From Leptonemataceae bacterium (GTDB taxonomy: Bacteria > Spirochaetota > Leptospiria > Leptospirales > Leptonemataceae): a stretch of DNA of 64,000 nucleotides. Below the pieces are notes generated by a model. That model did not search any database. It saw only the letters and a list, made by a program, of their open reading frames with translations, and was not told the DNA's origin. A program made the translations under genes and the position numbers. The stretch spans positions 768,001 through 832,000 of the forward strand of contig OZ245742.1 in assembly GCA_965227295.1 (NCBI GenBank), in the 5' to 3' direction. Position 1 is the stretch's first letter. Every line of letters begins with the position of its first letter. Positions 8,598-23,508 of this stretch are shown here, piece by piece.

Positions 8598-9524
8598 GTG
8601 AACAAGAACACCGCTATATACATAAAAAACGCGCTCGCGATTCTCTTTTTCGCGGCGGTCGCGTATTTTCTGTACCGCTACATCCAGAACCTGCGCTTCG
8701 ATCGTCTGGCGGAGGCGGAGCTGCATTGGGGCTACCTCGCCCTCGGCCTCGCTCTCGGCGTCGGCCATAAGTTCTTGTTTCCGCAAGTCTGGAAGGCGAT
8801 CCTCACGGGCAGCATGAACGCGCGACTCACCGGCTGGCGGCCGTTGTACTTCGTATACGCCGCGTCCTGGATCGGCCGCTACGTACCCGGCAAGGTCGCC
8901 ATGGTCGGGGCGCGGGTGCTGTACGCGGAGCGCGTGGGTGTGAGCCGATCCCAGGCGGCGGTATCGTTCCTGGTCGAGATGGGCGTGCAGATGCTCGTAT
9001 GGGGCACCGGCGCACTGATCTTTTTCGCGCTAACCGGCGGCGGGGAAATCTTAGAGCGTGAGCTGGGAATCTTCGCGTGGGCGCCGCTGCTGTTCCTGGT
9101 GGCGCTGTATCCGCCGCTGCTCAACTTCGGCCTGCGCCTGTTGTTTCAGCTCATGCGCAAAGAAGCCGTGGACGTCTTCATCGATTTTCCCACGATTCTC
9201 AGCGCCGCCTCGGTGCATCTAACGATCTTTCTGCTCTACGGCCTCTACAACTACAGTCTCGCCCTGGCCATTTTGCCGGCGGACGTTAATATCTCTTTGC
9301 TGTACGTTACGGCCGTCTTCGGCGGTTCGTTGCTCGTGGGCATGCTGGTGATCTTCATGCCCGCCGGTCTGGGCGCCCGGGAGTCCGTGCAACTGGCCCT
9401 GCTCGGCGCAATTATCGATCCCGCCTTCGCCCTCGTGATCGTGGTGCTACACCGGGTCATGGACGTCGGCTCGGACTTGATCTACTTTGCCGTGTGTTTC
9501 ACGGCGGGGCGGAAGAGCGGGTAA
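8598..9524 (+). CDS. Flippase-like membrane protein (lysylphosphatidylglycerol synthase TM/UPF0104)
   Basis: GRYVPGK and PAGLGARE motifs, multi-TM; GTG start at 8598 chosen (ORF open from 8541). Confidence 0.8.
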   Translation: MNKNTAIYIKNALAILFFAAVAYFLYRYIQNLRFDRLAEAELHWGYLALGLALGVGHKFLFPQVWKAILTGSMNARLTGWRPLYFVYAASWIGRYVPGKVAMVGARVLYAERVGVSRSQAAVSFLVEMGVQMLVWGTGALIFFALTGGGEILERELGIFAWAPLLFLVALYPPLLNFGLRLLFQLMRKEAVDVFIDFPTILSAASVHLTIFLLYGLYNYSLALAILPADVNISLLYVTAVFGGSLLVGMLVIFMPAGLGARESVQLALLGAIIDPAFALVIVVLHRVMDVGSDLIYFAVCFTAGRKSG

Positions 9525-9584
9525 GACGGGGCGTGGTTCGTGAGAGCTGAAAAGCCCGTGCAGGTTCGGAGACAGGATTTAGTC

Positions 9585-9686
9585 GGGCGCGTCGGCGCTT
9601 CGCGCCGACCGGGCTCCTCCGGGCTCCGCTATCGCTTCGGTCGCGCTACGCGCGACGGCCTTCGGCCCCCTCCGCATCCCTCGCGC
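9585..9686 (-). repeat. Multi-hairpin dispersed repeat, copy 2
   Basis: Reverse-strand copy with the same linkers; loops GAA, GTA, GAA. Confidence 0.8.
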
Positions 9687-9705
9687 GAAGAGCTGCGATA
9701 CACGA

Positions 9706-9818
9706 GCGTGAGGGACACGCAGGGTGGCGCGCAGCGCCAGTCTCGCGCATGCGCGAGACCGCAGCGCAGCGGAGCCCGGAGTGGCCCGACCCCGCGCACA
9801 GCGCGGGGGCACGCCCAA
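9706..9818 (+). repeat. Multi-hairpin dispersed repeat, copy 3 (divergent from copy 2)
   Basis: GCGTGAGGGA...GCGGAGCCCGGAG...ACGCCCAA. Confidence 0.8.
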
Positions 9819-9937
9819 AAGAATCGACGCGTTTGTAACTTTTGTTCACCGAAACTTACACACCGATTCGGGGCGTCGGCGATCACACAAGATTTTGCTG
9901 GCCCGCCCGCGCAAAGCGCGGCACACTGCCTGAAAAC

Positions 9938-11116
9938 ATGAACGGCACGTACGACGTCATCATCATCGGCACGGGGCCGGCCGGAACCTCGACGGCCCTG
10001 CACCTGTACCAGCGCGATCCAGCCTGGGCCGGGCGGGTGCTGCTGATCGACAAAGCCGTGCATCCGCGCGAAAAACTCTGCGGCGGCGGCGTGACGCACT
10101 ACGGAGAGGATCTCTTAACTGATCTTGGTCTAAAGTTTGAGCCGAGGCACTTCGATGTTCGTGAGGTGCGTCTGGACTACGAGGGCGAATCCTACAGCTT
10201 TCGCGGCTCGCCCGTCTTTCGCATCACTCATCGCGCGGAGTTCGATCACTGGCTGCTCGGCGAGGTTCGCAAACACGGCTTCACGATTCGCGAAGGCGAG
10301 GGCGTGACGGCCATCCACATCGCCGACGATGATAACGCCGCGGTCGATGCTGCCGCGCCGGTTACGGTCACCACGGAACGCGGCAAGTATCGCGGCAAAG
10401 TCTTGATCGCCGCCGACGGATCGAAGAGCACCGTGCGCCGATTGCTCGCCTGGCCGGAGCGGGAGGCGCCGCATCTGTCGCGCCTGGTCGAAACGTTGAC
10501 CGACGAAGACGAACGGCAGGCCGAGTTCGCCGACGGCCGGGCGATCCTGGACTTCAGCCGCATGACCGATCGCCTGCAAGGATACTACTGGGACTTTCCG
10601 AGTTATGTCGACGGTCGCCCGCGCATGAATCGCGGCCTCTTCGACAGCCGCATCCAGGCGCAGCGCCCCCGCGCCGACCTCAAAGGCAACCTGAACGATT
10701 TCTTAAGTCAACGCGAACGTAAGTTAGACGAAGGCGGCCTAAAAGGTCATCCCATCCGATGCTTCGATCCGCGGTCAACGTTCGCCCGGCCGCACGTCAT
10801 CCTCGCCGGCGACGCCGCGGGCGCGGACCCGTTGTTCGGCGAGGGCATCTCGTTCGCGCTCGCCTACGGCAAAATCGCCGCCGAAGCCGTGGCCGCCGCC
10901 TTCGATCGCAACGACTTCACGTTCGGCGATTACCGGCGCCGCATCTTACGGCAACCGCTCATGCGGCAATTGAAGCTGCGCGTGCGATTGGCGCGCATGG
11001 CGTACGTGTTGCACCGGCCGTGGTTCGTGCGAATGATGTGGCGGATTGCGGGAGCCGTGGTGCGGTGGACGCCGTGGTCGAAAGAGAGCTTTCGGCCGGC
11101 GAAGCGGGTGGGGTGA
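9938..11116 (+). CDS. FAD-dependent oxidoreductase, geranylgeranyl reductase family
   Basis: DVIIIGTGPAG, PREKLCGGG, AADG and GDAAG-x-DPLFGEGI motifs. Confidence 0.88.
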   Translation: MNGTYDVIIIGTGPAGTSTALHLYQRDPAWAGRVLLIDKAVHPREKLCGGGVTHYGEDLLTDLGLKFEPRHFDVREVRLDYEGESYSFRGSPVFRITHRAEFDHWLLGEVRKHGFTIREGEGVTAIHIADDDNAAVDAAAPVTVTTERGKYRGKVLIAADGSKSTVRRLLAWPEREAPHLSRLVETLTDEDERQAEFADGRAILDFSRMTDRLQGYYWDFPSYVDGRPRMNRGLFDSRIQAQRPRADLKGNLNDFLSQRERKLDEGGLKGHPIRCFDPRSTFARPHVILAGDAAGADPLFGEGISFALAYGKIAAEAVAAAFDRNDFTFGDYRRRILRQPLMRQLKLRVRLARMAYVLHRPWFVRMMWRIAGAVVRWTPWSKESFRPAKRVG

Positions 11117-11162
11117 TGCATCTGCTCACGCGGACTTGATCGGCGCCGGCTAATGATGTGGT

Positions 11163-11780
11163 TTATTTGAACTGAATCGTCAGGCGTTTGAAGTGAGTGT
11201 CCTTTAGTTCGAAGGGTGCTTCGAACATATCCATGTAAGCCTCATCATAGAAGTAGACCAGGAATATCGAGTCGTAAGGGAAGTCTTCGATTCGATACAC
11301 CTGGTAGCTGTTGAAGTAAATTTCAGAGATGTGCCATGCGACTCTCAGGCGCTGCTCTGTTTGGTCGAGCAGCTCTACACTGCGCATTTCCGGATAGGTC
11401 AGGCTATAGACGATTGCGCCTGGTGCCAGATCGGAAACGACCAGGGGAGCATTCATATCCCCGACTGCCAGTGCCCCTCCATGTGCGAAAGGCAGATCCT
11501 CTGTCGATACTCCCGGCCTTACCGAGTTATGGATCGATTGCTCCGTAGACGCGACAATGGAGGGAGAGTTGCCACAGTCTGCTTCGGTCGGGCAAAGGGG
11601 GATTTCGATAATTAGAGTAAAGGGTTCTCTGGCGAGGACCAGTCGGGAGCTATCTTCGTATTTCGTAATATGTATGGTTTGGTTGAAATGATCGGTTCCC
11701 TGGCAGCCAGGAAGGAAGGCGCCCACAATCGCAAATACGGCTGAGGTCTGCCAGGCTCTGAATTGAATGGGGAAAGACAT
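11163..11780 (-). CDS. Hypothetical lipoprotein
   Basis: Hydrophobic N-terminus ending LPGC; start MSFPIQ at 11780. Confidence 0.5.
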   Translation of the reverse strand: MSFPIQFRAWQTSAVFAIVGAFLPGCQGTDHFNQTIHITKYEDSSRLVLAREPFTLIIEIPLCPTEADCGNSPSIVASTEQSIHNSVRPGVSTEDLPFAHGGALAVGDMNAPLVVSDLAPGAIVYSLTYPEMRSVELLDQTEQRLRVAWHISEIYFNSYQVYRIEDFPYDSIFLVYFYDEAYMDMFEAPFELKDTHFKRLTIQFK

Positions 11781-11791
11781 AAGGTTGCCAC

Positions 11792-12295
11792 ATGGCGAAT
11801 CGATATGAGCAGGTACCGGACCGATTGTGGCAGCTGATCGAACCACTGATGCCCGCGGAAGAGCCGAAGCCGTACGGAGGCCGTCCCCGGAAGAGCTGGC
11901 GCGCGGTGATGAATGGGGTTCACTACAAGTTATGGACGGGGCGTCAATGGGAAGCGATTCCCTCGTCGATCATCAACGGCAAGACGTGTCATCGAAGATA
12001 TCAAGAACTGGTCGAAGCTGGTGTATTCGATCAGATTCTTGAGCTGATGCCACAAGAAGAAAGGTCTTCGATACCAATGGGCGACGCTGGATTCTTCGAT
12101 GGTGAAAGCGCCGAAAAAAGGGGGCTCACCGGTCCGAATCCGACTGACCGTGCTAAATCCGGCGTAAAACTGCACGTTTTGACGGATGAACGCGGCATCC
12201 CGTTGTCCGCCGGTATCACGGCCGCGAACGTTAACGATATTTTTCTCGTGGCTGCTGCCCTCGATCATGTTCGCATGCGCGCTCCCCGCGGGCCA
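11792..12295 (+). pseudogene. IS5-family transposase remnant, 3'-truncated
   Basis: GGRPR, WTGRQW, TCHRRY, GPNPTDR and KLHVLTD-x2-GIP motifs; A6G5 slippery run near 12114-12125; the DSSMVKAP segment lies in another frame, implying an extra indel near 12048; sequence breaks into a CRISPR repeat before DKGYD. Confidence 0.85.
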
Positions 12296-12296
12296 G

Positions 12297-12426
12297 GGGG
12301 ATGGACCGTTTCGCTTCGTCTTTACAAAATTGTATCACCGGTATTCCCCACGCGTGTGGGGATGGACCGACGTAGGCTATATCCCCGAGGACGTCGTCGA
12401 GGTATTCCTCACGCACGTGGGAATCC
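12297..12426 (+). CRISPR. Type I-E array 0 (remnant: half repeat, full repeat, degenerate terminal repeat; 2 spacers)
   Basis: GGGGATGGACCG at 12297-12308, full repeat at 12341, degenerate repeat at 12402. Confidence 0.85.
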
Positions 12427-12556
12427 TCTAATATTCATTGGAGTGCGATTAGCAGCCACAGCCAGATAGAACGTCACCGATCTGGAGGACACCCGACTCA
12501 TTCTTCCTTTTCCTCGTTGACTTGACATGCGGTAAAATACTAAACAGGTTGTTAGA
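12427..12556 (+). promoter_or_regulatory. CRISPR leader, type A
   Basis: Near-identical to 16562-16693; ends TTGAC...TACTAAACAGGTTGTTAGA. Confidence 0.85.
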
Positions 12557-13073
12557 GTATTCCCCACGCACGTGGGGATGGACCGTCGAGGCCGACTTGC
12601 GCGTCAGGTTCGGCGATGTATTCCCCACGCACGTGGGGATGGACCGAACGCAGCGCCCGCTTCCCGGGCATTACCAAGGTATTCCCCACGCACGTGGGGA
12701 TGGACCGGTGAGTACGGAAAAGAGTACAAAGACCAGGAGGTATTCCCCACGCACGTGGGGATGGACCCAATTCTGCTCGCCGGGACGCGGTTGTGTCCTG
12801 GTATTCCCCACGCACGTGGGGATGGACCGCCGCGTATAGGTGCTTCAACTGATCCCCGATCGTATTCCCCACGCACGTGGGGATGGACCGCCTTCAGGCC
12901 CATTCCGCCGTTGATTGCATCCGTATTCCCCACGCACGTGGGGATGGACCGGTGAACCTGAACCCGGTAGAGGCTGTCCGCCGGTATTCCCCACGCACGT
13001 GGGGATGGACCGTTTCCAACGAGCGTTTGAACGAAGTCGATATCGTATTCCCCACGCACGTGGGGATCTATCG
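12557..13073 (+). CRISPR. Type I-E array 1: 9 repeats, 8 spacers
   Basis: GTATTCCCCACGCACGTGGGGATGGACCG at a 61-bp period; last repeat degenerate. Confidence 0.98.
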
Positions 13074-13204
13074 CTAATATTTATTGGAGTTTGATTAGCA
13101 ACCTCATTCAGATAGGAACGCGTCACCTATCCGGCGGACATCCGAATCATCGTTCCTTTCCTTGTTGACTCGCAATGCGGGAAAATACTAAACAGGTTGT
13201 TAGG
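13074..13204 (+). promoter_or_regulatory. CRISPR leader, type B
   Basis: Highly similar to 15791-15922. Confidence 0.85.
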
Positions 13205-14332
13205 GTATTCCCCACACGCGTGGGGATGGACCGCCGTAGTGCCGAGAAGAATTGCGGACGAAAGAGTATTCCCCACACGCGTGGGGATGAACCGGGGAGC
13301 TGACGCTCCGCAACCCGTCCGAAGAGAGTATTCCCCACACGCGTGGGGATGGACCGACTGGTGGTAGGACTAATTTATTAATAACTCAGTATTCCCCACA
13401 CGCGTGGGGATGGACCGACAGTGGCGGGGCCACGACTTCGGCCCCGAACGTATTCCCCACACGCGTGGGGATGGACCGGGGTCAGATTACAGGTCAATTC
13501 AGGGGTCGCCGTATTCCCCACACGCGTGGGGATGGACCGATCACACCCTCTATTTGCGGCTGGCTCGTGAGGTATTCCCCACACGCGTGGGGATGGACCG
13601 TGGGTCAGCATGGCTGAGATCTTTTTGAGCCTGTATTCCCCACACGCGTGGGGATGGACCGGACGTGGGTGAGATGGTGGAACCACTCAACGCGTATTCC
13701 CCACACGCGTGGGGATGGACCGGTTCACAGCCTCGCCTCGCAAACATCTTTCGCGTATTCCCCACACGCGTGGGGATGGACCTGCTCTACAAGACTCCGC
13801 GTGTGCTCATCCAGCGTATTCCCCACACGCGTGGGGATGGACCGAAACACGCCGCCGAGAAGCAACGCCGCGCCTAGTATTCCCCACACGCGTGGGGATG
13901 GACCGCAGGGTGAAGCGGACTTCACTGAAGAACCACGGTATTCCCCACACGCGTGGGGATGGACCGCGAAGGCGCTCGCTCATTCTTGTTCTTGCGGCGT
14001 ATTCCCCACACGCGTGGGGATGGACCGGGCGGAAGCGTGATCGTCGGCAGGTTGCGCGGGTATTCCCCACACGCGTGGGGATGGACCGATCGTGTAGAGC
14101 AGCCCGTTTTGTGACGGTGTGTATTCCCCACACGCGTGGGGATGGACCGACAAGGTCTGCGACGGCGATCGTCTTCGGACCGTATTCCCCACGCGCGTGG
14201 GGATGGACCGAAAGAAGTGAAGGTTAGAACATCCGGGGATAGGCATTCCCCACGCATGTGGGGATCGACCGGCTCGATCCATAGCGCGCAGACATGCCAT
14301 GTCGCATTCCCCACACGCGTAGGGATCTCCCC
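13205..14332 (+). CRISPR. Type I-E array 2: 19 repeats, 18 spacers
   Basis: GTATTCCCCACACGCGTGGGGATGGACCG; degenerates at the 3' end. Confidence 0.98.
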
Positions 14333-14488
14333 TTCTCCCACTAAAGTACTACAAAACCAACCTAAGACCCCGCAATGACCGACCATCCAATCCAATAACC
14401 CCTCATAAATGCCCCGGAAAACCAGGGTCTCCACTCAAACCCACTCAAGGCCGCCAACTCCCGCACCGAAGACAAAACGAGGCCACAC

Positions 14489-15367
14489 ATGAACCGGGAC
14501 TTACAGGAAATACCGCGCTTCGATCATAACTGGTCGTTTCTATATTTCGAAAAAGGTCGCATCCAACAAGAACTGCAAACCGTTGCATACTGCTATCTCG
14601 AAAAGAAGATCCCCGTTCCCATCGAAACGTTGTCGCTGCTCATGCTCGGCCCCGGCACCAGCATCACGCACGAGGCCGTCAAACGCATCGCCGATTCCCG
14701 CTGCCTGCTCGCCTGGGTCGGCGAAGAAGGCATTCGATTCTATGCCGGCGGTTCTCCCGGAACGTACTCCTCGCGCCATCTGTTGCAACAGGTCTACAGC
14801 TACGCGAACGACATCGAGCGCATGAAGATCGTCCGGCGCATGTATCAGATGCGCTTCGATGAAGTCGTCGACACGAACGTTACCCTCGAACAACTCCGCG
14901 GCATGGAAGGCGCACGCGTACGCAAAGCCTACGCGGCCGCCGCCGAAGAATTCGGCGTCGAGTGGACCGGACGCAGTTACGACCAGAACGATTGGCGCGC
15001 CGGTGATCCGGTCAACCGCGCGCTCTCGGCGGCGAACTCCTGCCTCTACGGCCTCTGCCACGCGGCGATCCTGTCGCTCGGCTGTTCCCCCGGCATCGGC
15101 TACATTCATACCGGCAAACAACTATCGTTCGTCTACGACATCGCCGATCTCTACAAAACCGAGATCACCATCCCCATCGCGTTCCAGGAAGGCCAGGCAC
15201 CGGCAGCCGTAGAATCGCGCACCCGCCACGCCTGCCGGGATCGCTTTCGCGAAACACGTCTCATCAAACGCATCATCCCCGACATCATGGAGGTTCTGTA
15301 TGGTAATCGTCGTGCTGGAGAACGCGACACCGGGACAGAGGGGCGTGATGTCGCGGTTAACTATTGA
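14489..15367 (+). CDS. cas1: Type I-E Cas1
   Basis: LMLGPGTSITHEA, QLRGMEGARVR, HTGKQLSFVYDIADLYK. Confidence 0.97.
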   Translation: MNRDLQEIPRFDHNWSFLYFEKGRIQQELQTVAYCYLEKKIPVPIETLSLLMLGPGTSITHEAVKRIADSRCLLAWVGEEGIRFYAGGSPGTYSSRHLLQQVYSYANDIERMKIVRRMYQMRFDEVVDTNVTLEQLRGMEGARVRKAYAAAAEEFGVEWTGRSYDQNDWRAGDPVNRALSAANSCLYGLCHAAILSLGCSPGIGYIHTGKQLSFVYDIADLYKTEITIPIAFQEGQAPAAVESRTRHACRDRFRETRLIKRIIPDIMEVLYGNRRAGERDTGTEGRDVAVNY

Positions 15368-15641
15368 ACTCAAGGCCGGTGTCTTTGCCGGCAATCTCAA
15401 TCGCCGCATCCGCGACAAACTCTGGGACCGCATCGTCCACAAATGGAACGCGAACGCCTTGCTGATCTACACCACGAACACCGAACAGGGCTACGCGGCC
15501 CGTTCACACGGCGACACCAGCCGCGAACTTGTCGAGATCGAAGGCATGGTTCTTACGCAGTTCACCCGGCGTAAACATCGTAAGTCGAATGATGATGATG
15601 CGGTTGATGCGGATCATGTCGGCGGGGCTGGGGGCATGTAA
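15300..15641 (+). CDS. cas2: Type I-E Cas2
   Basis: MVIVVLE...ELKAGVFAG...IRDKLW...EQGY; overlaps the cas1 3' end by 68 nt. Confidence 0.95.
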   Translation: MVIVVLENATPGQRGVMSRLTIELKAGVFAGNLNRRIRDKLWDRIVHKWNANALLIYTTNTEQGYAARSHGDTSRELVEIEGMVLTQFTRRKHRKSNDDDAVDADHVGGAGGM

Positions 15642-15700
15642 GGCGCGGTTCCTTTTGTTCGTTGACTTGTGATGTGCGAAACTACTTAACAGGTTGTGTC

Positions 15701-15790
15701 GTAGTCCCCACGCATGTGGGGATGGACCGCGCCTGCGGCCCCCACTGCCCGCCCGGACTGTGTATTCCCCACGCGTGTGGGGATCCATCG
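15701..15790 (+). CRISPR. Type I-E array 3: 2 variant repeats, 1 spacer, short leader 15642-15700
   Basis: GTAGTCCCCACGCATGTGGGGATGGACCG and GTATTCCCCACGCGTGTGGGGATCCATCG. Confidence 0.9.
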
Positions 15791-15922
15791 CTAATATTTA
15801 TTGGAGTTCGGTTAGCAACCACATTCAGATAGGAACGCGTCACCTATCCGGCGGACATTCGAAGCATTGTTCCTTTTCCTCGTTGACTTGACATGCCGGA
15901 AACTACTAAACAGGTTGTTAGA
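15791..15922 (+). promoter_or_regulatory. CRISPR leader, type B
   Basis: Paralogue of 13074-13204. Confidence 0.85.
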
Positions 15923-16561
15923 GTATTCCCCACGCACGTGGGGATGGACCGGAGTCCCCCGCCATGGGAGAAGAAGATCAGCAGTATTCCCCACGCACGT
16001 GGGGATGGACCGGAGGCGCGGGCTCAAGATGAAAGCAGAGATTGCGTATTCCCCACGCACGTGGGGATGGACCGGTCACCTGGAATTCGATCCGGCACAC
16101 ATGGGTGTATTCCCCACGCACGTGGGGATGGACCGCCGTCGGAGGTAAAGGAAGATGAAAGCTAAAGGTATTCCCCACGCACGTGGGGATGGACCGCACA
16201 CCTACATCCGCCGGTCCCTAAAGATTGAGTATTCCCCACGCACGTGGGGATGGACCGGAGCACACAAGCGCATGAGGACTCAAGAAATCGTATTCCCCAC
16301 GCACGTGGGGATGGACCGATGCGCACTCAGGTTCCATCACAATTCTCTGCGTATTCCCCACGCACGTGGGGATGGACCGGGGCCCTGCCCGGTTACGCTG
16401 GCGGGGGTGGCGTATTCCCCACGCACGTGGGGATGGACCGTCGGAGGCGCGCCCGGCGGGTTGCTATACTTGGTATTCCCCACGCTCGTGGGGATGGACC
16501 GCTGAGCGATCGGCGCTACAACGAACTCCGTAAGTATTCCCCACGCACTGTGGGAATACCG
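15923..16561 (+). CRISPR. Type I-E array 4: 11 repeats, 10 spacers
   Basis: GTATTCCCCACGCACGTGGGGATGGACCG. Confidence 0.98.
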
Positions 16562-16693
16562 CTAATATTCATTGGAGTGTGATTAGCAGCCACAGCCAGA
16601 TAGAAACGCATCACCGATCTGGAGGACACCCGACTCATTCTTCCTTTTATCCGTTGACTTGACATGCGGTAAAATACTAAACAAGTTGTTAGA
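16562..16693 (+). promoter_or_regulatory. CRISPR leader, type A
   Basis: Paralogue of 12427-12556. Confidence 0.85.
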
Positions 16694-17637
16694 GTATTCC
16701 CCACGCGTGTGGGGATCGACCGATTACGAATCCATTCGGGCCGATTTTGTCGGGGTATTCCCCACGCGTGTGGGGATCGACCGGTGGCTGCACGGAAAAT
16801 GGAAGCAGATTTACTGTATTCCCCACGCGTGTGGGGATCGACCGTGACCCTGGAGGACGGCAACGTCCACGAGGGGGTATTCCCCACGCGTGTGGGGATC
16901 GACCGTATTCTCAGGCGTCTGATTGACGTCATTTGGTGTATTCCCCACGCGTGTGGGGATCGACCGGGTTGCCTGGTAGTCGAGGATTGGGGCGGCGAGT
17001 ATTCCCCACGCGTGTGGGGATCGACCGCGCCTGGAGCCTGCCATTCGTCCACTCATCGCGTATTCCCCACGCGTGTGGGGATCGACCGCAGGCCGCTATC
17101 GATAAGGCCCGGGAAGAATCGTATTCCCCACGCGTGTGGGGATCGACCGCCCGAGAAGATCGAACATGGGTAGGGTATTGAGTATTCCCCACGCGTGTGG
17201 GGATCGACCGCTGTGGGCGCACTTCGTGATCCTCTTCTGCCAGTATTCCCCACGCGTGTGGGGATCGACCGATCCCGCTGAGCGAATACCGCGAAGCCGT
17301 TGCGTATTCCCCACGCGTGTGGGGATCGACCGCCCCGACGCAGCCTCGTTGACGGAGTGTATGGGTATTCCCCACGCGTGTGGGGATCGACCGGTGCGGT
17401 CATCGTCGAGAATGCCGGCACACAAGTATTCCCCACGCATGTGGGGATGGACCGTGCTACCACGGGGACGGCGGTCGCGATCTTCAGTATTCCCCACGCA
17501 CGTGGGGATGGACCGCCGATTTTCGTGATGATTTCATGTTCCTTTAAGTATTCCCCACGCGCGTGGGGATGGACCGCCCCGAGACCCGGCTTCCACGCTC
17601 CAGGGTGAGTATTCCCCACGCGTGTGGGGATTAGCCG
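16694..17637 (+). CRISPR. Type I-E array 5: 16 repeats, 15 spacers
   Basis: GTATTCCCCACGCGTGTGGGGATCGACCG; distal repeats switch to ATGGACCG. Confidence 0.98.
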
Positions 17638-17784
17638 CTAATAAACATTTAGGAGTTGTTAGTATCGTTGATCTTCGATGCGCCTCTTGCAAAACAACAC
17701 GTCTCCTGATTGGTAGACATGCGAAGCACGACTCCTATTAATCGTTGACTTGCAATGCGCAAAAATACTAAACAGGTCGTTAGA
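17638..17784 (+). promoter_or_regulatory. CRISPR leader, type C (divergent)
   Basis: Starts CTAATA, ends GTTGACTTGCAATGCGCAAAAATACTAAACAGGTCGTTAGA. Confidence 0.8.
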
Positions 17785-18300
17785 GTATTCCCCGCGTATG
17801 CGGGGATGGACCGGTCGGGCGGGAGAAGAGCTACCACGCCGTCTTGTATTCCCCGCGTATGCGGGGATGGACCCAGCCGAACCCTACTACAGGCACTGGC
17901 GGAATCGTATTCCCCGCATACGCGGGGATGGACCGCCGTCGCGCCCGGACAGCCCGTTCGTGTCCGCGTATTCCCCGCATACGCGGGGATGGACCGCTGC
18001 TGACCAATTGATTGTCACTGTAGGCCAGTATTCCCCGCATACGCGGGGATGGACCGTCCACGGCCTCGCCGAGCTTCGGATTGTACGGGTATTCCCCGCG
18101 TACGCGGGGATGGACCGTGGACACCCTGGATCGGAACTTTGAGCTGGCGGTATTCCCCGCATACGCGGGGATGGACCGAACCAGTCACGCCGGAGGAGTA
18201 ACCAGAAAACGTATTCCCCGCGCATGCGGGGATAGACCGTCGATTTCGTCGTCTACGCCTTCGCCCTGGACGTATTCCCCGCGCATGCGGGGATCGGCCG
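17785..18300 (+). CRISPR. Type I-E array 6: 9 repeats, 8 spacers
   Basis: GTATTCCCCGC(GTAT/ATAC)GCGGGGATGGACCG. Confidence 0.97.
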
Positions 18301-18486
18301 CACGGCAATCACAGACCGGAAGCGCTCCTGCTCTTTTCCTCACGACGCGGGGCCGCGCAGCACGCCCCGCTTCCTACTCCCCAACGCTTACATGATGACA
18401 ATCATCCAACCCGTCCCCCCATCAGATAGAACGCCCTCCTCCGGAAAATCCTCGACACCCCTCCCCCGCCGCCCCTCCGTCAAACC

Positions 18487-21477
18487 GTGCTCACCTACAA
18501 CCAGTACTGGGGCAAAGCCCGCCCGTCTTCGAAACAGAAGGCCTCATACCACCTCCTCCCCCACCACTCCCTCGACGTGGCCGCATGCGGCGCGGTGCTC
18601 CTCGAACAGCGCCCGCGCCTCCTCGAACTCCTCGTCCACCAGAGCGATCTCCCCGCAAACGTCATCCGCGAACTAATCCCATACTATCTAACCATACACG
18701 ACCTCGGCAAATTCGCCCTCCCCTTCCAGGCCCTGGCACCGGATACGCTGCAAACCCTGAGCAATCGACAAACCGACCGCAAATACACCGTCCGCCACGA
18801 CCACCTCGGCTTTCTCGTCTGGCGCAAACGAATCCGCAAACTACAGCTCGCTAACTGGCAGCAAAAAGAAGTCTGCACCGCAGAAAACGCAAGCATCCTG
18901 CGCAACATCATAGACCCCGCCGTCATCGCGGTCACCGGCCACCACGGCCGCCCGTCGAACTACCCGCACAATTCTCAGGGGGAAGCATTCCTCGAAGACC
19001 ACTTCACCACCGAAGACATCGAGGCCGCCCTCGCATTCACCCTCGCCGCGTCCGACCTGCACCTCGACGCCACATACGAATACTTCCGAACAACGCTGCG
19101 CAACCACGCATCACAACCCGAAGCCATCCAACGCCGACACCGGCGACTCTCGCACTGGATCGCCGGCCTCGGTGTGCTGTGCGATTGGCTCGGCTCCCAG
19201 GCCGACGCATACTTTCCCTACAACGCGCAGGCCGCGTCATCTCTCGCCGAATACTATCACGAAGACGCCCTGCCCCGCGCCCGTGATGCCGTCCCGCACG
19301 CCGGCCTCGCCCCGGCTCCGGCGCGCGCGCTCACTTCGTTTGCGTACCTGTTTCCCGCGCTCCGGCGCCCCACCCCGCTCCAGCACGCTGCCGAAACCAT
19401 CCCGCTCCCCGCGGAACCGCAGCTCTTCGTCATCGAGGACAGCACCGGCTCCGGCAAAACCGAAGCGGCCGGCATGTTCATCCATCGCCTGCTCGCCGCC
19501 GGACTGGCCGACGGCCTGTACTTTGCCCTGCCCACCACCGCCACGGCCGATGCCATGTACACGCGCTTTACCGGCGCCGACGAATCCCTGCATAGTTTCT
19601 ATCGCAAGCTGTTTGCCGATGAAAGTTACCCGTCGATCGTCCTGGCACATAGCTGGAGTCGCCTGCATTCGGGCTTTCTCAGAACGATCATCACCCCGCC
19701 GGAGAATCTGCTCGCCGACCAGGGCGAAACCTACGGTGCCGACGACACCGGCGCCACGGCGTTCTGCAACATCTGGTTCACCGACCAGCGTAAGAAGGCG
19801 CTCCTGGCCGACGCCGGCATCGGCACCGTCGACCAGGCGTTGCTCGCCGTCCTGCAGGCGAAGCACCACGCCCTCCGTCTCATCGGACTCACCCGCAAGG
19901 TCCTCATCGTCGACGAGGTCCACGCCTACGATCCGTACATGCACCACACGCTCCGTCGACTGCTCCACTTTCACGGAGCCGGCGGAGGATCGGCCATCCT
20001 GCTCTCGGCCACCCTGCCCGCCCGCGACCGGAACGAGTTAATTGAAAGCTATCAAAGCGGACTGCGCATCTACCAGGAACTTCCGGAGCAGGAAGATGAT
20101 CCCGCCGATCCGCAAGACGATGCGGCCACCGCCGCTAAACATCCGGCGAGCGTACCTTACCCGCTGCTCACGCGGGCCGGCGCGTCCGGAATTCGCGAGT
20201 ATGCCGTAGAAACCACGTCGCGCAGTCGCCGCCGCGTGCGCATCAGGCGTATCCCCAATGCCGACGCGGCGCTCGATCACGTCCTCGAACAGGCCGCCCA
20301 GGGCAAATGCGTCTGCTGGATACGCAACACCGTCAACGACGCCATCGAAGCCTACGAACAACTACGCGCCCGCACGGAAAGAGCCGCACACACCACGGCC
20401 TTCCATACACCACCGGACATCCTCTTTCACGCGCGCTTCGCTCTCGGCGATCGACTCGCGATCGAACGCCGGGTCCTGGCATCCTTCGGCAAGACGAGCA
20501 CGGCCACAGCACGCCGCGGACGCATCGTCATCGCCACGCCCGTGGTCGAACAATCCCTCGATCTCGACTTCGACGTCCTGCTTTCCGATCTCGCGCCCAT
20601 CGATCTACTATTACAACGCCTCGGCCGCTTGCGCCGGCACCAACGCGACGCAGGCGGCAACCCACTCGCCACGGACAGCGACGACGGTCGCGGCGAAATC
20701 GAGTTCGCCGTGGTATCACCCGACCCGATCGACGAACCGTCGCCCGCATGGTACAAAGCCGACTTTCCCCGCGCCGAATACGTGTATCGCGACACGGGCC
20801 GCTTATGGCTCTCCGCCCGCGCCCTCTTCGAGCGCGGCGAACTACACATGCCGGACGATTCGCGTGCGCTCATCGAAGAAGTCTACGGACCCGGATCGCA
20901 CGAACGCATCCCGCCAGGCTTACGTGCGGCATCCGAAAAGGTACGCGGCAAAGCCGCCGCGGATCGCAGCACGGCCGATCACAATACCCTCGATCTGGAT
21001 ACCGGCTACAAAGTTGCGTACGGCGAAACTTACGCGGACGACTACCGCTCCCCCTCGCGTCTCGGCGAACCCACCGTGCGACTCTACCTCGCGCGCTACG
21101 ACAGCAAACAGCGGCGCCTGGCACCGTGGATTCAACCGGAAGCAGTGGATGATTCACAAACAACACAGCAAGATGCGGCAACCCAACAACGCCTCGCCGC
21201 GCTCCATGCGTGGGAGTTGAGCACGGTAACGGTGGCCACCCGCAAAATCGCCGGCCAGGCGCAGCCGGAACATCCCGAACATGCGCAGGCCCTGGCCGCG
21301 TGGAAAGAGTCCCGCCCGGATCGCGGTCGCTACAGCCCGGTCATTCTTCTTGAACCCGATGTCGCCACAAATCCCACCGCGGACCCGACCGGCGAATGGA
21401 CCGGCCAGGCCCGCAATGAAAAAGGCAGCCTGGTCCAGGTCCGCTACTCGGCGGAACTGGGGCTGCGGGTAGATTGA
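18487..21477 (+). CDS. cas3: Cas3 HD nuclease-helicase
   Basis: YWGKA, HSLDVAA, HDLGK, TGSGKTEA, DEVHAYD, LSATLP, QRLGRLRRH. Confidence 0.97.
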   Translation: MLTYNQYWGKARPSSKQKASYHLLPHHSLDVAACGAVLLEQRPRLLELLVHQSDLPANVIRELIPYYLTIHDLGKFALPFQALAPDTLQTLSNRQTDRKYTVRHDHLGFLVWRKRIRKLQLANWQQKEVCTAENASILRNIIDPAVIAVTGHHGRPSNYPHNSQGEAFLEDHFTTEDIEAALAFTLAASDLHLDATYEYFRTTLRNHASQPEAIQRRHRRLSHWIAGLGVLCDWLGSQADAYFPYNAQAASSLAEYYHEDALPRARDAVPHAGLAPAPARALTSFAYLFPALRRPTPLQHAAETIPLPAEPQLFVIEDSTGSGKTEAAGMFIHRLLAAGLADGLYFALPTTATADAMYTRFTGADESLHSFYRKLFADESYPSIVLAHSWSRLHSGFLRTIITPPENLLADQGETYGADDTGATAFCNIWFTDQRKKALLADAGIGTVDQALLAVLQAKHHALRLIGLTRKVLIVDEVHAYDPYMHHTLRRLLHFHGAGGGSAILLSATLPARDRNELIESYQSGLRIYQELPEQEDDPADPQDDAATAAKHPASVPYPLLTRAGASGIREYAVETTSRSRRRVRIRRIPNADAALDHVLEQAAQGKCVCWIRNTVNDAIEAYEQLRARTERAAHTTAFHTPPDILFHARFALGDRLAIERRVLASFGKTSTATARRGRIVIATPVVEQSLDLDFDVLLSDLAPIDLLLQRLGRLRRHQRDAGGNPLATDSDDGRGEIEFAVVSPDPIDEPSPAWYKADFPRAEYVYRDTGRLWLSARALFERGELHMPDDSRALIEEVYGPGSHERIPPGLRAASEKVRGKAAADRSTADHNTLDLDTGYKVAYGETYADDYRSPSRLGEPTVRLYLARYDSKQRRLAPWIQPEAVDDSQTTQQDAATQQRLAALHAWELSTVTVATRKIAGQAQPEHPEHAQALAAWKESRPDRGRYSPVILLEPDVATNPTADPTGEWTGQARNEKGSLVQVRYSAELGLRVD

Positions 21478-21565
21478 TCCCCACTTACGTGGGGAAGGAA
21501 AACGCACACGGAACACGTATGCGGAACATTCCCGGTGGATTCCCGAGAATGGACATGTTTTCTCG
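21471..21565. repeat. CRISPR repeat-like mini-array (pseudo-repeat, 33-nt pseudo-spacer, partial pseudo-repeat)
   Basis: Stem CCCCAC-TTAC-GTGGGG at 21479-21494; minus strand reads ...GGGAATCCACCG [33 nt] TCCTTCCCCACGTAAGTGGGGATCAATCT. Confidence 0.65.
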
Positions 21566-21642
21566 ACCAGGCCCAAAGCTCAATTCATCGTCCTTGGGCA
21601 CGTCCTTCATTACACAGAACACATATGCTTTGATTTTTTTCA

Positions 21643-21671
21643 TTGACATTGCCGACAAGGCGGGTTAATAT
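21643..21671 (+). promoter_or_regulatory. Sigma70-type promoter upstream of the small ORF and Cascade operon
   Basis: TTGACA-17 bp-TAATAT with an AT tract upstream. Confidence 0.75.
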
Positions 21672-21699: not shown

Positions 21700-21825
21700 A
21701 TGAAAATCGAATCCGATGTATATTCCTTAGTAAGGCTTCCGGAACGAGGAATTATTCTCATCATTAGACAAAATCAGATAGTAGTGCTAAGGGACTATCG
21801 TATCGTGCGCCACATTAACCTGTAG
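21700..21825 (+). CDS. 41-aa small ORF ahead of cas8e
   Basis: AAGGAG RBS at 21688-21693, ATG at 21700, AT-rich; stops 6 nt before the cas8e GTG. Confidence 0.55.
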   Translation: MKIESDVYSLVRLPERGIILIIRQNQIVVLRDYRIVRHINL

Positions 21826-21831
21826 TCGACC

Positions 21832-23508
21832 GTGTCCCAACTATCCTTCCACTTACTCGATGACCCCTGGCTCCCCGTCCGCCGCAGCAGCGGCGCCGAG
21901 ACCTGGATCACCCCCGCGGACATCACGTCCAATCCCGGCAATGATCCGGTCGTCGCCCTGGCGAGTCCGCGGCCGGACTTCGACGGCGCGCTGCTACAGT
22001 TTCTAATCGCACTGCTGCAATCCACCTGTGCGCCGACGTCATCCCAGGAGTGGCTCAAACGATTCGTAGATCCGCCCTCCCCCGGTGAACTACGAGAACT
22101 CTTCGCCGTAGACGAATCAGCCTTTGCCTTCGCGGGCGAAAAACTACCCTCGCGCTTCTTACAAGACGTCGAACTCGCCTTCGATCCCGACGACGCCGTG
22201 CCCATCGCCGGCCTGCTCATTGATTCCCCGGGCGCGAAGACCCTCAAGGACAACGCCGATCATTTCGTAAAGCGCGACCGCGTGAACGGACTGTGCGCGG
22301 CCTGCACAGCGACAGCCCTGTTCACGTTGCAAACGAACGCACCCTCCGGCGGCGTCGGCCATCGCACCTCACTGCGCGGCGGCGGACCACTGACGACTCT
22401 GCTCACTCTCGATCCGGCAACGACCTTACCGAACACACAGCGCCCCACACTCTGGCACGATCTCTGGTTGAACGTCCTGCCGCTGGCCCCCAGGGATGCG
22501 GGCCGGCGCACATCCAAAACGAAACGCGCAGACATCTATCCCTGGCTCGCTCCCACGCGCACCAGCGACAAGAGCGGCGTGCTCACCACGCCCGATGATG
22601 TCCACGCTCTACAAATGTACTGGAACATGCCCCGGCGCATCGTCTTCGATCCGGAGACGACGCCCGGCGATTGCGATCTCTGCGGGCGCAAAGATGAACT
22701 CTATACACGTTACGCGACGAAAAACTACGGCACGAACTACAGCGAAGGTTTTCGACATCCGCTCAGCCCGCACTACAAAGACGAGAAGACCGGCGCCACA
22801 TCACCCCTGCACCCCCAGCCGGGCGGCATGACGTATCGCTACTGGCTGCGACTCATGCTTCCGACAAAAGAAGCCAACAATCTGCCCGCGCATGTCGTCA
22901 CGGCCTTCGAAGGCCGGCGGCAGGACGGTGATCTGGAGGACATAGACGATCTCGATTATCTGCTCTACGCCTTCGGCTACGACATGGACAACATGAAAGC
23001 CCGCGCATACTACGAGGCGCGCATGCCGGTCCTGTTTGTATCCAAAGACGTTCGTGAAGTATTCGCGCGTCTGGTCGCGGACATGTTGAACGGAGCGAAT
23101 CAGTTCGCCGGCAATACCCGCAACGCCGTAAAGCAGGCCTGGTTTCGCCGGCCCCAGGACGTCCGCGGCAATGCCGACTTCATTCGCGATGAATTCATCC
23201 AGGCTACCGAAACCGGATTCTACGATCATCTCCACCGGCTGAAGCAGCAGGGCGAAGATGGCCGAACGGTCCTCACGGAATGGCACGCGCATCTACATCG
23301 CGCGTCTCTCGCGACGTTTCACAAATACGCTCCGCCGCCCCAGGCCCGCTCCCGGCACATGCAGCGCTACGTCGAAGCGATCCGCTTTCTCTTGATGTGC
23401 AACTATTCGAAGAAGCTCAAAAACTTGCTCAACGTTCCCGAGAAAAAGTTCGTCCCACCGGAGGACGCAATCGAAGGCATCGCACGGGAGGACGCATTAC
23501 ATGCATAA
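21832..23508 (+). CDS. casA: Cascade large subunit Cas8e/Cse1
   Basis: LLDDPWLPV, RPDF, NADHFVKR, APSGGVGHRTSLRGGGPLTTL, WNMPRRI. Confidence 0.95.
   Translation: MSQLSFHLLDDPWLPVRRSSGAETWITPADITSNPGNDPVVALASPRPDFDGALLQFLIALLQSTCAPTSSQEWLKRFVDPPSPGELRELFAVDESAFAFAGEKLPSRFLQDVELAFDPDDAVPIAGLLIDSPGAKTLKDNADHFVKRDRVNGLCAACTATALFTLQTNAPSGGVGHRTSLRGGGPLTTLLTLDPATTLPNTQRPTLWHDLWLNVLPLAPRDAGRRTSKTKRADIYPWLAPTRTSDKSGVLTTPDDVHALQMYWNMPRRIVFDPETTPGDCDLCGRKDELYTRYATKNYGTNYSEGFRHPLSPHYKDEKTGATSPLHPQPGGMTYRYWLRLMLPTKEANNLPAHVVTAFEGRRQDGDLEDIDDLDYLLYAFGYDMDNMKARAYYEARMPVLFVSKDVREVFARLVADMLNGANQFAGNTRNAVKQAWFRRPQDVRGNADFIRDEFIQATETGFYDHLHRLKQQGEDGRTVLTEWHAHLHRASLATFHKYAPPPQARSRHMQRYVEAIRFLLMCNYSKKLKNLLNVPEKKFVPPEDAIEGIAREDALHA

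Follow-up and report, generated by a model that had tools for sequence, protein, structure and literature searches.

Why do many genomes keep several CRISPR arrays for one Cas set, and how do new arrays arise? Both questions are open in the field; a preprint by Weissman et al. (2018; 10.1101/148544) reportedly deals with multi-array Cas loci in general. In the available text of one survey, loci with about five arrays are said to "occur quite often" and loci with about ten to be "rare", the stated origins of multiple arrays are duplication, horizontal acquisition and splitting, and definitive evidence for the proposed benefits is described as lacking (PMC12814883). Canonical type I-E systems have one or two separate arrays. 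In contrast, six leaders and seven arrays lie within one 6-kb block of the Leptonemataceae DNA analysed here (a stretch of 64,000 nucleotides, hereafter the window).

Organization of the locus

The locus is one complete CRISPR-Cas system of type I-E, the spacers of which are split over seven head-to-tail arrays by six leader copies. In total, 69 repeats (one a 12-nt stump) and 62 unique spacers are found in seven co-oriented arrays between positions 12297 and 18300. A Hamming scan with the 29-nt repeat located 68 full repeats at 61-nt spacing from 12341 to 18300, in addition to the stump at 12297–12308; outside the array stretch, it returned only two repeat-like sites, both with 9 mismatches (21471–21502, on both strands, and 45567–45595). 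Nearly all spacers are 32 nt long (59 of 62; two are 33 nt and one is 31 nt). As in type I-E, the repeat is partly palindromic, spacers of 32–33 nt give a 61-nt period, and a Cas6e hairpin is present; none of the Rfam CRISPR-DR families reached its gathering score. The array separators are five long leaders (126–147 nt) and one 59-nt leader after cas2. The order proposed in the initial annotation, arr0-A-arr1-B-arr2-cas1-cas2-short leader-arr3-B-arr4-A-arr5-C-arr6-cas3, matches the repeat scan, including the embedding of cas1-cas2, which sits between arr2 and arr3.

All arrays lie on the + strand, and every one of them ends in a degenerate repeat. The cluster begins at a 3′-truncated IS5-family transposase gene (11792–12296, + strand; NCBIfam transpos_IS5_3, profile positions 4–167 of 258; DUF4096 and partial DDE_Tnp_1 in Pfam), which abuts the repeat stump of arr0 and the open frame of which continues into the array; no second copy of this gene exists within the window. 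Array arr0 (12297–12430) has lost its own leader and retains two spacers and three repeats: the stump, a full repeat and a terminal repeat that is degenerate and ends GGGAAT. It is followed by arr1 (12557–13073; 9 repeats, 8 spacers), which has the hairpin loop GCAC and a terminal repeat ending GGGGATCTATCG, and by arr2 (13205–14332; 19 repeats, 18 spacers), in which 16 leader-proximal repeats with loop ACGC are followed by two older variants, then by a terminal repeat that has decayed. A stretch of 156 nt of unrelated sequence separates arr2 from cas1. Downstream of cas2, arr3 (15701–15790) consists of 2 repeats and 1 spacer, its terminal repeat ending GGGGATCCATCG, and arr4 (15923–16562; 11 repeats, 10 spacers) has the same repeat as arr1 and a terminal repeat with a 1-nt insertion that ends GGGAAT. 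The 16 repeats and 15 spacers of arr5 (16694–17637) include 12 leader-proximal repeats with loop GCGT and a G-to-C change in the 3′ part, then three older variants and the terminal repeat. Finally, arr6 (17785–18300; 9 repeats, 8 spacers) has a stem with a compensatory A-U to G-C change and is separated by 186 nt of unrelated sequence from cas3, which begins at 18487.

The cas genes

The full I-E gene set is present on the + strand, each gene in single copy, and no cas relics are found elsewhere in the window. The adaptation genes are cas1 (14489–15367), which encodes a Cas1e of 292 amino acids (TIGR03638, 365 bits against a cutoff of 215.6), and cas2 (15300–15641), which encodes a Cas2e of 113 amino acids (TIGR01873, 70.6 bits; PF09707). 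The cas1 product matches I-E Cas1 chains in the PDB with E-values of 2.5e-79 to 1e-67, and its residues E140, H207 and D220 are invariant in an alignment of 39 sequences. After arr6 come cas3 (18487–21477; 996 amino acids, HD nuclease and helicase by NCBIfam and Pfam domain models), cse1/casA, the gene for Cas8e (21832–23508; TIGR02547), cse2/casB (23501–24133; TIGR02548), cas7e/casC (24130–25257; TIGR01869), cas5e/casD (25277–26059; TIGR01868) and cas6e/casE (ORF limits 25921–26748; TIGR01907). The true start of cas6e is probably later than the ORF limit, the family match beginning at residue 63. NCBIfam subtype models are above cutoff for Cas1e, Cas2e, Cse1, Cse2, Cas7e, Cas5e and Cas6e, in agreement with Pfam; Cas3 passes with the core and HD domain models but, at 457 bits, falls below the cutoff of 569 bits for the full-length equivalog.

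As in the canonical I-E systems of E. coli and Salmonella, the same eight cas families are present, the 29-nt repeats form a 7-bp stem, spacers are 32 nt long, the leader is AT-rich and the terminal repeat is degenerate. The usual order, cas3-cse1-cse2-cas7-cas5-cas6e-cas1-cas2-leader-array, is instead permuted: cas1-cas2 comes before cas3, with four arrays between them and another three ahead of cas1. Gene order is typical of type I-E but does not define the subtype.

A repeat-like hairpin at the end of cas3

The spacer region between cas3 and cse1 resembles a known type of regulatory mini-array and is a candidate for one. Such mini-arrays, or CreR crRNA-like RNAs, sit between cas3 and cas8e of I-E loci, according to the available text of two reports (10.1101/2023.03.10.532045; PMC10120712). 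Here, a solitary repeat-like hairpin lies at the cas3 stop codon (21474–21502, + strand). Its local alignment to the repeat scores 32, compared with a maximum of 26 in 300 shuffles, and the stem pattern of the repeat occurs outside the arrays only at this site (0 of 200 shuffles). Behind the hairpin, a 17-nt stretch (21506–21522) recurs at 21612–21628 with 15 of 17 positions matching, a value that none of 500 shuffles reaches. The recurrence ends 14 nt before the −35 hexamer of a near-consensus sigma-70-type promoter (TTGACA-N17-TAATAT, 21643–21671, + strand), which lies ahead of a 41-codon ORF (21700–21825) and cse1. A repeat-like hairpin in a long cas3-cse1 region is a feature shared with the CreR mini-arrays as described in those texts, and the stretch behind it, recurring beside the Cascade operon promoter, may be another. 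Unlike in them, no second repeat-like element is significant, as further pieces in the region score 12–14, below the shuffle median of 16; guide positions 1–3 are mismatched; and TTC occupies the PAM position, whereas the PAM reported for I-E is AAG, which may not apply to this system.

Leaders and the terminal repeats that precede them

The six leaders, all on the + strand, share a repeat-proximal core of about 60 nt, in which 41 of 75 alignment columns are invariant. A model built on this core (R1) has six matches in the window, all at leader sites: A1 (12431–12556; 126 nt, GC 0.45; 83.1 bits), B1 (13074–13204; 131 nt; 73.6 bits), S (15642–15700; 59 nt; 67.4 bits), B2 (15791–15922; 132 nt; 82.2 bits), A2 (16563–16693; 131 nt; 79.3 bits) and C (17638–17784; 147 nt; 75.3 bits). 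Because these sites score 67–83 bits with E-values of 1e-19 to 1e-23, the structure is far beyond chance; elsewhere in the window, the only match is one of 9.6 bits (E 0.98), at the terminal repeat of arr1. Leader S, directly 3′ of the cas2 stop codon, consists of the shared core only, and in leader C the distal part has diverged around a conserved core. The leaders are AT-rich (GC 0.41–0.47 compared with 0.59 for the window), and their conserved region lies beside the first repeat.

Across their whole length, the inter-array leaders (126–147 nt) are 65–95% identical. Core identity is 67–94% in all leader pairs; identity falls to 36–55% in the distal parts of C and S. The closest pairs are A1/A2 (95%) and B1/B2 (90%), with distal matches of 64/66 and 65/69, respectively, compared with 80–83% for A versus B. 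As initially annotated, the terminal repeat ahead of each A leader ends GGGAAT and that ahead of each B leader GGGGATC(T/C)ATCG; after GGGAAT, the tail is shortened in both A-type terminal repeats. Judged by alignment, A1/A2 and B1/B2 appear to be paralogous pairs, the similarity of which reaches past the leader into the degenerate end of the terminal repeat before it; both this and the pair identities support the earlier proposal that each leader was copied along with that end. The leader order, A,B upstream of cas1 and B,A downstream, is unexplained by simple tandem duplication, and the core of B2 is nearer to A1 (56/62) than to B1 (52/61), although its distal part groups with B1 (65/69).

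Comparison with related loci

In 78 of 80 related I-E loci, cas5, cas6e or cas7 lies directly upstream of cas1-cas2, giving the canonical cas6e-cas1-cas2-array order; the initial contrast with a typical locus therefore holds. Interference genes downstream of cas1-cas2, and leader-like inserts between co-oriented arrays, occur in none of the 80. At E < 0.1, the core model matches at most once per locus: in L006 (24.7 bits, E 2e-5), L001 (E 0.016) and L026 (E 0.071), each time immediately upstream of the repeat that comes first after cas2. Weaker matches are seen in L035 (E 0.29) and at a second site in L006 (E 0.91). The nearest relative, L006, thus has a recognisable leader core at the same position. 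Adaptation and interference genes best-match the same clade (L001–L007), L006 being best only for Cas1 and Cas2; the best Cas1 relative in the genome contigs searched is 67% identical.

Repeat variants and growth of the arrays

The leader-end repeats belong to a single array-specific variant in arr1 (8 repeats), arr2 (16), arr4 (9) and arr5 (12), followed at the leader-distal end by older variants and the degenerate repeat. The arrays had been said to carry different repeat variants, and most do, but arr1 and arr4 are identical (29/29). A fold with a 7-bp stem and a 4-nt loop is common to all array variants, including that of arr6 with its compensatory change in 9 of 9 repeats; damaged hairpins are found in the two A-type terminal repeats and that of arr2. 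The last repeat base varies in three repeats (C, T, C), as is typical of I-E acquisition.

Because the leader-end variants are uniform and array-specific, the sequences argue that at least five leaders have each served as an integration site in the past. For the annotated notion of independently acquiring leaders, this uniformity is indirect evidence of past growth at the leaders of arr1, arr2, arr4 and arr5, and implies neither present-day use nor growth in this genome; growth in separate genomes followed by later joining of the arrays would also give array-specific variants. Nor is growth evident at all leaders: arr3, behind S, has a single spacer. The arrays share no spacers, as initially noted: in an all-versus-all comparison of the 62 spacers in either orientation, the best of 1891 pairs has 19 matching positions, within the maxima of 18–20 from five shuffled sets. 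Spacer GC (0.58) is near that of the window. No spacer matches were found in the rest of the window (best exact run 14 nt), in the 80 related loci or in a phage collection, and plasmid matches to spacers were repeat-driven among the matches listed.

Transcription signals

Internal promoters in the leaders, as suggested initially, are not borne out. A −35-like hexamer, TTGACT or TTGACA, is kept in every leader, but the −10 match at a distance of 15–19 nt is at best 2–4 of 6 positions, and 3 of 6 after the shared hexamer; a consensus promoter scan detected no promoter in any of the six. No terminators are seen between arrays, and neither cas1-cas2 nor cas3 has its own promoter-like sequence.

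Discussion

The layout of this locus is probably best explained by seven co-oriented sub-arrays of one I-E system, made by repeated copying of a module of degenerate terminal repeat and leader, with several of the leaders used for growth. The module would have been copied several times within arrays, most likely through homologous or unequal recombination among repeats and among leader copies, which would have divided the store in seven. Each leader retains the core of about 60 nt, of which relatives have a single copy downstream of cas2. In type I-E, as established for E. coli, the repeat-proximal leader region is where Cas1-Cas2 finds the first repeat, so each junction of leader and first repeat may be a legitimate integration site. 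Judging by the sequence, arrays 1, 2, 4, 5 and 6, at least five in all, grew from their own leader ends once their first repeats had diverged. Going by sequence features, the arrays would be transcribed on the + strand and the transcripts processed by Cas6e at the hairpin preserved in every variant.

A smaller but real possibility is that the inner leader copies are passive relics, that only one or two leaders are used today (for example S, or a lost leader upstream of arr0), and that each array block is transcribed as a single precursor. This would fit the absence of a −10 element from every leader, the hairpins damaged in three terminal repeats, and Leptospira interrogans Lai, in which RT-PCR showed seven tandem I-B arrays to be co-transcribed and they were attributed to a single leader, according to the available text (PMC9372919). 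Neutral relics would not be expected to have the core as the best-conserved part of every copy, at 67–94% beside the 36–55% of distal C and S. A single growing end would also require a change of the first repeat and its reversion, since the G-to-C change in 12 arr5 repeats is absent from arr4 and the arr6 stem pair differs, and S, the leader in the canonical position, heads the smallest array. An origin of the arrays and leaders in separate but related genomes or plasmids, followed by joining through recombination at the shared repeats, is unlikely; A1/A2 and B1/B2 would then be diverged alleles rather than in-situ duplicates. The mosaic leaders (B2 with the distal part of B1 and a core nearer to A1), the repeat that arr4, behind B2, shares with arr1, behind A1, the A,B and B,A orders that misfit simple tandem duplication, and the IS5 fragment at the cluster edge all point that way, and horizontal acquisition is one of the three origins of multiple arrays listed in the survey text (PMC12814883). 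Nevertheless, the adaptation and interference genes point to one clade, spacer GC is close to that of the window, and the mosaic pattern rests on few positions and would arise equally by gene conversion between paralogous leaders in one genome.

Concatenation of strain variants of one or two arrays during assembly is very improbable. Repeat arrays are hard to assemble, and among the 70 related loci that contain an array, 40 continue for less than 500 nt past the last one, many of these ending inside it. However, Cas1 of the window lies on a contig of 5,938,550 nt, the window is without N, and the two array blocks end in unrelated, unique sequence running into cas1 and cas3. Concatenated variants should also share old leader-distal spacers, and none of the 1891 spacer pairs exceeds chance; their leaders should be near-identical, and the closest pairs are only 95% and 90% identical.

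The layout is unusual but not unprecedented. In Salmonella, one cas set serves two arrays, the leaders of which are more than 65% identical and which have no spacers in common (PMC2886076), and in Streptomyces avermitilis both arrays acquire spacers (PMC4762764), each as given in the available text. The closest precedent is the seven-array cluster of L. interrogans Lai, which is of subtype I-B, not I-E. As described in the available portion of that report, the stretch from cas2 to the effector genes holds seven short, co-oriented arrays with several repeat variants, the 112–229 nt between one array and the next being similar in sequence, and the authors concluded that there is one leader and one precursor transcript (PMC9372919). 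Co-oriented arrays between cas2 and effector genes, with mutually similar separators of 100–230 nt, are found here too. Unlike in that account, the inter-array sequences carry the core of the post-cas2 leader, each array is uniform at its leader end for a repeat variant of its own, and there are also arrays upstream of cas1. Terminal-repeat-plus-leader cassettes and leader copy number are not described in the available survey text (PMC12814883).

A bolder reading, which we regard as quite unlikely, is that the cassette is a selected, self-propagating module that subdivides a growing array again and again. All six leaders would act at once as integration sites and transcription starts, and every spacer would lie within 18 units of a leader. 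Since no promoter-like sequence belongs to cas1-cas2 or cas3, expression of these genes would come from array read-through, and a crRNA-like mini-array before the Cascade promoter would tune Cascade supply to the seven-array crRNA load.

The locus leaves the understanding of the type I-E mechanism unchanged. It offers a natural test bed: six related yet distinguishable leader-repeat junctions lie within 6 kb beside a single cas1-cas2, marked by array-specific repeat variants. Therefore, the choice of leader by the integrase, the key leader positions, and whether crRNA supply becomes more even when 62 spacers are split could be measured together. With terminal repeat and leader copied together, a likely route of array birth is recorded here, and the locus may serve to test ideas on the origin of CRISPR arrays and on the use of leaders by the spacer integrase.

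Architecture of the type I-E locus

A CRISPR-dense stretch occupies positions 12297-18300 on the plus strand of the window. A Hamming scan of the window locates 68 full 29-nt repeats between 12341 and 18300, with a spacing of 61 nt within each array, in addition to a truncated first repeat that persists as a 12-nt stump (12297-12308). Beyond the array block, only two weak repeat-like sites are found (21471-21502 and 45567-45595). The repeats are separated by gaps of 126-147 nt, plus one gap of 1368 nt that contains cas1-cas2, into seven co-oriented arrays (arr0 to arr6). Including the six inter-array leaders (A1, B1, S, B2, A2 and C), the layout reads arr0-A1-arr1-B1-arr2-cas1-cas2-S-arr3-B2-arr4-A2-arr5-C-arr6, followed by cas3-cse1-cse2-cas7-cas5-cas6e. 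The array order, coordinates and terminal-repeat endings of the initial annotation were all reproduced by re-scan and alignment. From arr0 to arr6, the arrays hold 2, 8, 18, 1, 10, 15 and 8 spacers (n = 62), of which 59 are 32 nt, two are 33 nt and one is 31 nt long. No spacer is common to two positions: in an all-versus-all check, in agreement with the earlier statement that none are shared, the best of 1891 pairs agrees at 19 positions, and five shuffled sets gave a range of 18-20. An Rfam search over 11000-19000 at gathering thresholds returned no family.

The eight associated open reading frames are assigned by NCBIfam, with Pfam in agreement, to type I-E Cas1e, Cas2e, Cas3, Cse1, Cse2, Cas7e, Cas5e and Cas6e. 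Every cas gene is single-copy within the window, and a search there for remnants of another cas set found none. The window Cas1 shares 53-78% identity with 38 aligned database homologues, the closest of which (71-78%) are mostly on short contigs. Residues E140, H207 and D220, which we take to be the counterparts of the E. coli Cas1 catalytic triad, are invariant across this alignment, and solved I-E Cas1 chains match the window protein with E values of 2.5e-79 to 1e-67. The eight families, the invariant Cas1 residues and the matches to solved structures make the I-E system look intact.

Comparison with related loci

A scan with the Cas1 alignment, using one genome per species, yielded a comparison sample of 80 I-E loci, which contains neither the genome of the window nor a close relative (best Cas1 67% identical). 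In 78 of these 80 loci, the gene immediately preceding cas1, in the same orientation, is cas5, cas6e or cas7, an arrangement that bears out the typical I-E order stated initially; the exceptions are L032, where the neighbor is divergent, and L040, a short contig without a match. Interference genes follow cas1-cas2 in none of the 80. An array is present in 70 loci, 30 of which have at least 500 nt beyond the last array, and no leader-like insert between arrays was found in the sample; apparent gaps correspond to variant repeats, N runs, irregular spacers or decayed repeats. L044 alone has arrays on both sides of cas1-cas2. This locus, from an Armatimonadota MAG, carries an I-E array between cas6e and cas1 besides the usual array after cas2 (9457-9972 and 11376-12135). 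The best matches of both the adaptation and the interference proteins of the window fall in the same small clade of loci (L001-L007). The permuted gene order thus reflects rearrangement within one system rather than a chimera of two.

Leader families and the conserved core

Alignment of the six junctions reveals two close leader pairs, A1-A2 (122/128 identical positions over the full leader) and B1-B2 (117/130). The A and B leaders are 81-86% identical to one another; C is more distant (65-66% identity with A and B), and S shows 55-62% identity with the other leaders. Within each pair, the terminal repeats ahead of the leaders are also similar at their degenerate 3' ends, which supports the proposal that each leader was copied together with the repeat before it. 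Since the similarity stops before the last spacer, the copied unit begins within the repeat.

A repeat-proximal core of about 60 nt is common to all six leaders, with 41 of 75 alignment columns invariant; it includes a TTGAC block and a TACTAAAC block. Leader S (59 nt), which immediately follows the cas2 stop codon, is made up of the core and nothing else. A model built from the core sequences without structure matches exactly the six leader sites in the window (67-83 bits); its sole further match (9.6 bits, E 0.98) is at the terminal repeat of arr1. In the sample of 80 related loci, the model gives a single match at E<0.1 in each of L006, L001 and L026, immediately ahead of the first repeat that follows cas2, and two weaker matches have E values of 0.29 and 0.91. 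The leaders are AT-rich, with a GC content of 0.41-0.47 compared to 0.59 for the surrounding DNA. The six elements are real leaders of one family, the ancestral position of which is that of the copy behind cas2. A conserved RNA structure in the five long leaders was considered and set aside: of 31 predicted pairs, only one is changed on both sides, and the covariation term is positive. A boxA antitermination motif was also considered for a conserved leader motif and rejected, as the by-eye match to the consensus in 10.64898/2026.07.09.737519 is weak.

Repeat variants as a probable record of growth at several leaders

Every acquisition in a type I-E system copies the first repeat, and changes in that repeat are therefore inherited by all later units. 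The loop sequence GCAC is found in the leader-end repeats of arr1 (eight) and arr4 (nine), ACGC in 16 repeats of arr2, and GCGT together with a G-to-C change in 12 repeats of arr5; a different stem pair is present in 9/9 repeats of arr6. Distal positions hold older repeat variants, and a degenerate repeat closes every array. To produce this pattern from a single growing end, reversions would be needed. We conclude from the repeat sequences that at least five arrays probably grew from their own leader, in this genome or elsewhere. The suggestion of independent acquisition at several leaders is thus upheld as past growth at at least five of them, marked by array-specific leader-end variants, but not as present activity. 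The description of the arrays as carrying different repeat variants applies to arr2, arr5 and arr6, which are distinct, but arr1 and arr4 have identical repeats.

All repeat variants keep a 7-bp stem and a 4-nt loop, in arr6 through a compensatory A-U to G-C change, and this preservation suggests that Cas6e processing is under selection. The older repeats include the palindromic loops GCGC and GTAC. Hairpin inversion was considered as a source of the reverse-complementary loop pairs ACGC/GCGT and GTAT/ATAC and was set aside, as single transitions from GCGC and GTAC explain them equally well. Three repeats end not in G but in C, T and C (12768, 13783 and 17874, respectively). In E. coli, the last repeat base derives from the protospacer side, and the three variants fit what would be expected if the same applied here. 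These last-base variants are also a hint of a PAM that usually ends in G.

Promoters and transcription

A TTGACT or TTGACA hexamer is retained in every leader, some 35-40 nt ahead of the first repeat. A hexamer scan did not find a corresponding −10 element in the leaders: the best hexamer at 15-19 nt agrees at 2-4 of 6 positions, and at 3 of 6 after the shared hexamer. A consensus promoter scan of 11500-19000 gave two sites compared to 3.7 expected, none of which is within a leader. That the organism uses such promoters is indicated by the near-consensus TTGACA-N17-TAATAT at 21643-21671, in the cas3-cse1 spacer region, where it would serve the Cascade operon. The internal promoters proposed in the initial annotation are unsupported. 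Given a −35-like hexamer without a −10, the conserved leader block may serve integration and not transcription. A search for terminators between the arrays gave 10 terminator-like sites compared to 6.5 expected, none at an array end. Nothing promoter-like was found upstream of cas1 (14333-14488) or cas3 (18301-18486), where the best candidates agree at no more than 7/12 and 8/12 positions, so both genes may depend on read-through from the preceding arrays.

Origin of the multi-leader block

Leader B2 is a mosaic: its distal part groups with B1 (65/69), whereas its core is nearer to A1 (56/62) than to B1 (52/61). The repeat of arr4, behind B2, is also that of arr1, behind A1. Mosaic leaders and a unit boundary inside the repeat fit several rounds of recombination or gene conversion, both among repeats and among leader copies. 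They do not fit one clean tandem duplication, and neither does the leader order A,B in one block and B,A in the other. An assembly artefact, in which strain variants were concatenated, leaves a small residual doubt. Such a concatenation should look different from this block: the window contains no N, its Cas1 is recorded on a 5.94 Mb contig, the leader pairs have diverged by 5% and 10%, and the arrays have no old spacers in common.

We therefore favor, with fairly good confidence, a single I-E system whose multi-leader spacer store arose by recombinational copying of terminal-repeat-plus-leader units (the degenerate last repeat of an array and the leader after it), with at least five leaders used for integration. 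Copying of these units by recombination would have split the spacer store among leaders, and integration of spacers at at least five of them would have led to separate array growth. The cluster once extended further upstream. An IS5-family transposase gene (11792-12296) is cut off at profile position 167/258, exactly where the arr0 stump starts; a deletion therefore took the 3' part of the insertion sequence and the leader end of arr0, and the arr0 leader was lost. The two array blocks end in unique sequence with no similarity to each other or to the leaders, and the sequences upstream of cas1 and of cas3 have no similarity to each other or elsewhere in the window.

A candidate regulatory mini-array between cas3 and cse1

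The 354-nt cas3-cse1 spacer region opens with a solitary repeat-like hairpin (21474-21502) at the cas3 stop codon. This hairpin matches the CRISPR repeat at 20/29 positions with equal stem and loop geometry, and its local alignment score of 32 exceeds the maximum of 26 in 300 shuffles. The repeat stem pattern has one occurrence outside the arrays and none in 200 shuffles. A 17-nt stretch that lies three nucleotides past the hairpin (21506-21522) has a second copy at 21612-21628. The two copies agree at 15/17 positions, a value reached in 0/500 shuffles, and the second copy stops 14 nt short of the −35 hexamer in the Cascade promoter. The same layout is seen in the regulatory mini-arrays for crRNA-like RNAs (CreR) known between cas3 and cas8e of I-E loci, as described in two reports (10.1101/2023.03.10.532045; PMC10120712). 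In contrast to CreR, guide positions 1-3 are unmatched, and the PAM position (21606-21608) is TTC and not an AAG-type PAM. A second repeat-like element in the region was not significant. By analogy, the element fits a candidate regulatory mini-array of the CreR or crRNA-like RNA class.

Between the promoter and cse1 lies a 41-codon ORF (21700-21825) with a strong ribosome-binding site, a GC content of 0.40 compared to about 0.6 in its neighbors, and several of the rarest codons of the window DNA (AGG twice, AGA and ATA). It matches no Pfam family, and among 1.84 billion representatives no relatives were found except itself and two weak matches in long proteins. The ORF may represent a leader peptide or a small gene of cargo or toxin-like type, or may be non-coding.

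Elsewhere in the window, the minus strand at 52150-54885 encodes a 911-aa protein with an ammonium transporter at residues 8-395 and a CheA/histidine-kinase-like part at its C terminus (734-911); the protein may be an ammonium-sensing fusion. For MoeB, the closest named relatives reach about 60% identity and belong to several phyla.

Spacer targets

The best match of the spacers to the rest of the window is 14 nt exact, and to the 80 related loci 19/20. A search of a phage collection returned 21 records, all of which are repeat-like or cas1 matches; the single match at 96% is a 27-nt stretch inside cas1. The best 15 of 204 records from a plasmid collection are all Thermus I-E arrays. A repeat-spacer-repeat segment of arr6 (18150-18243) is matched at 71-72% by an unannotated region in 16 records of Piccadilly/Ignacio-group Streptomyces phages. 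These phage genomes carry I-E-like repeats, possibly as phage mini-arrays.

Relation to known multi-array loci

Several arrays per I-E locus are common: PMC12814883 gives a median of two, with about five said to "occur quite often" and about ten "rare", and names duplication, horizontal acquisition and splitting as origins. Salmonella CRISPR1 and CRISPR2 are reported to have leaders >65% identical and no spacers in common (PMC2886076), and the S. avermitilis I-E system to acquire spacers in both arrays (PMC4762764). In architecture, the closest precedent is the L. interrogans Lai I-B locus, where cas2 and cas6 flank seven tandem arrays. Mutually similar sequences of 112-229 nt separate these arrays, which were reported as one transcript with one leader (PMC9372919). 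No description of terminal-repeat-plus-leader cassettes was found in the literature searched. The locus reveals no new mechanism, but as a natural substrate it is well suited to experiments on leader choice.
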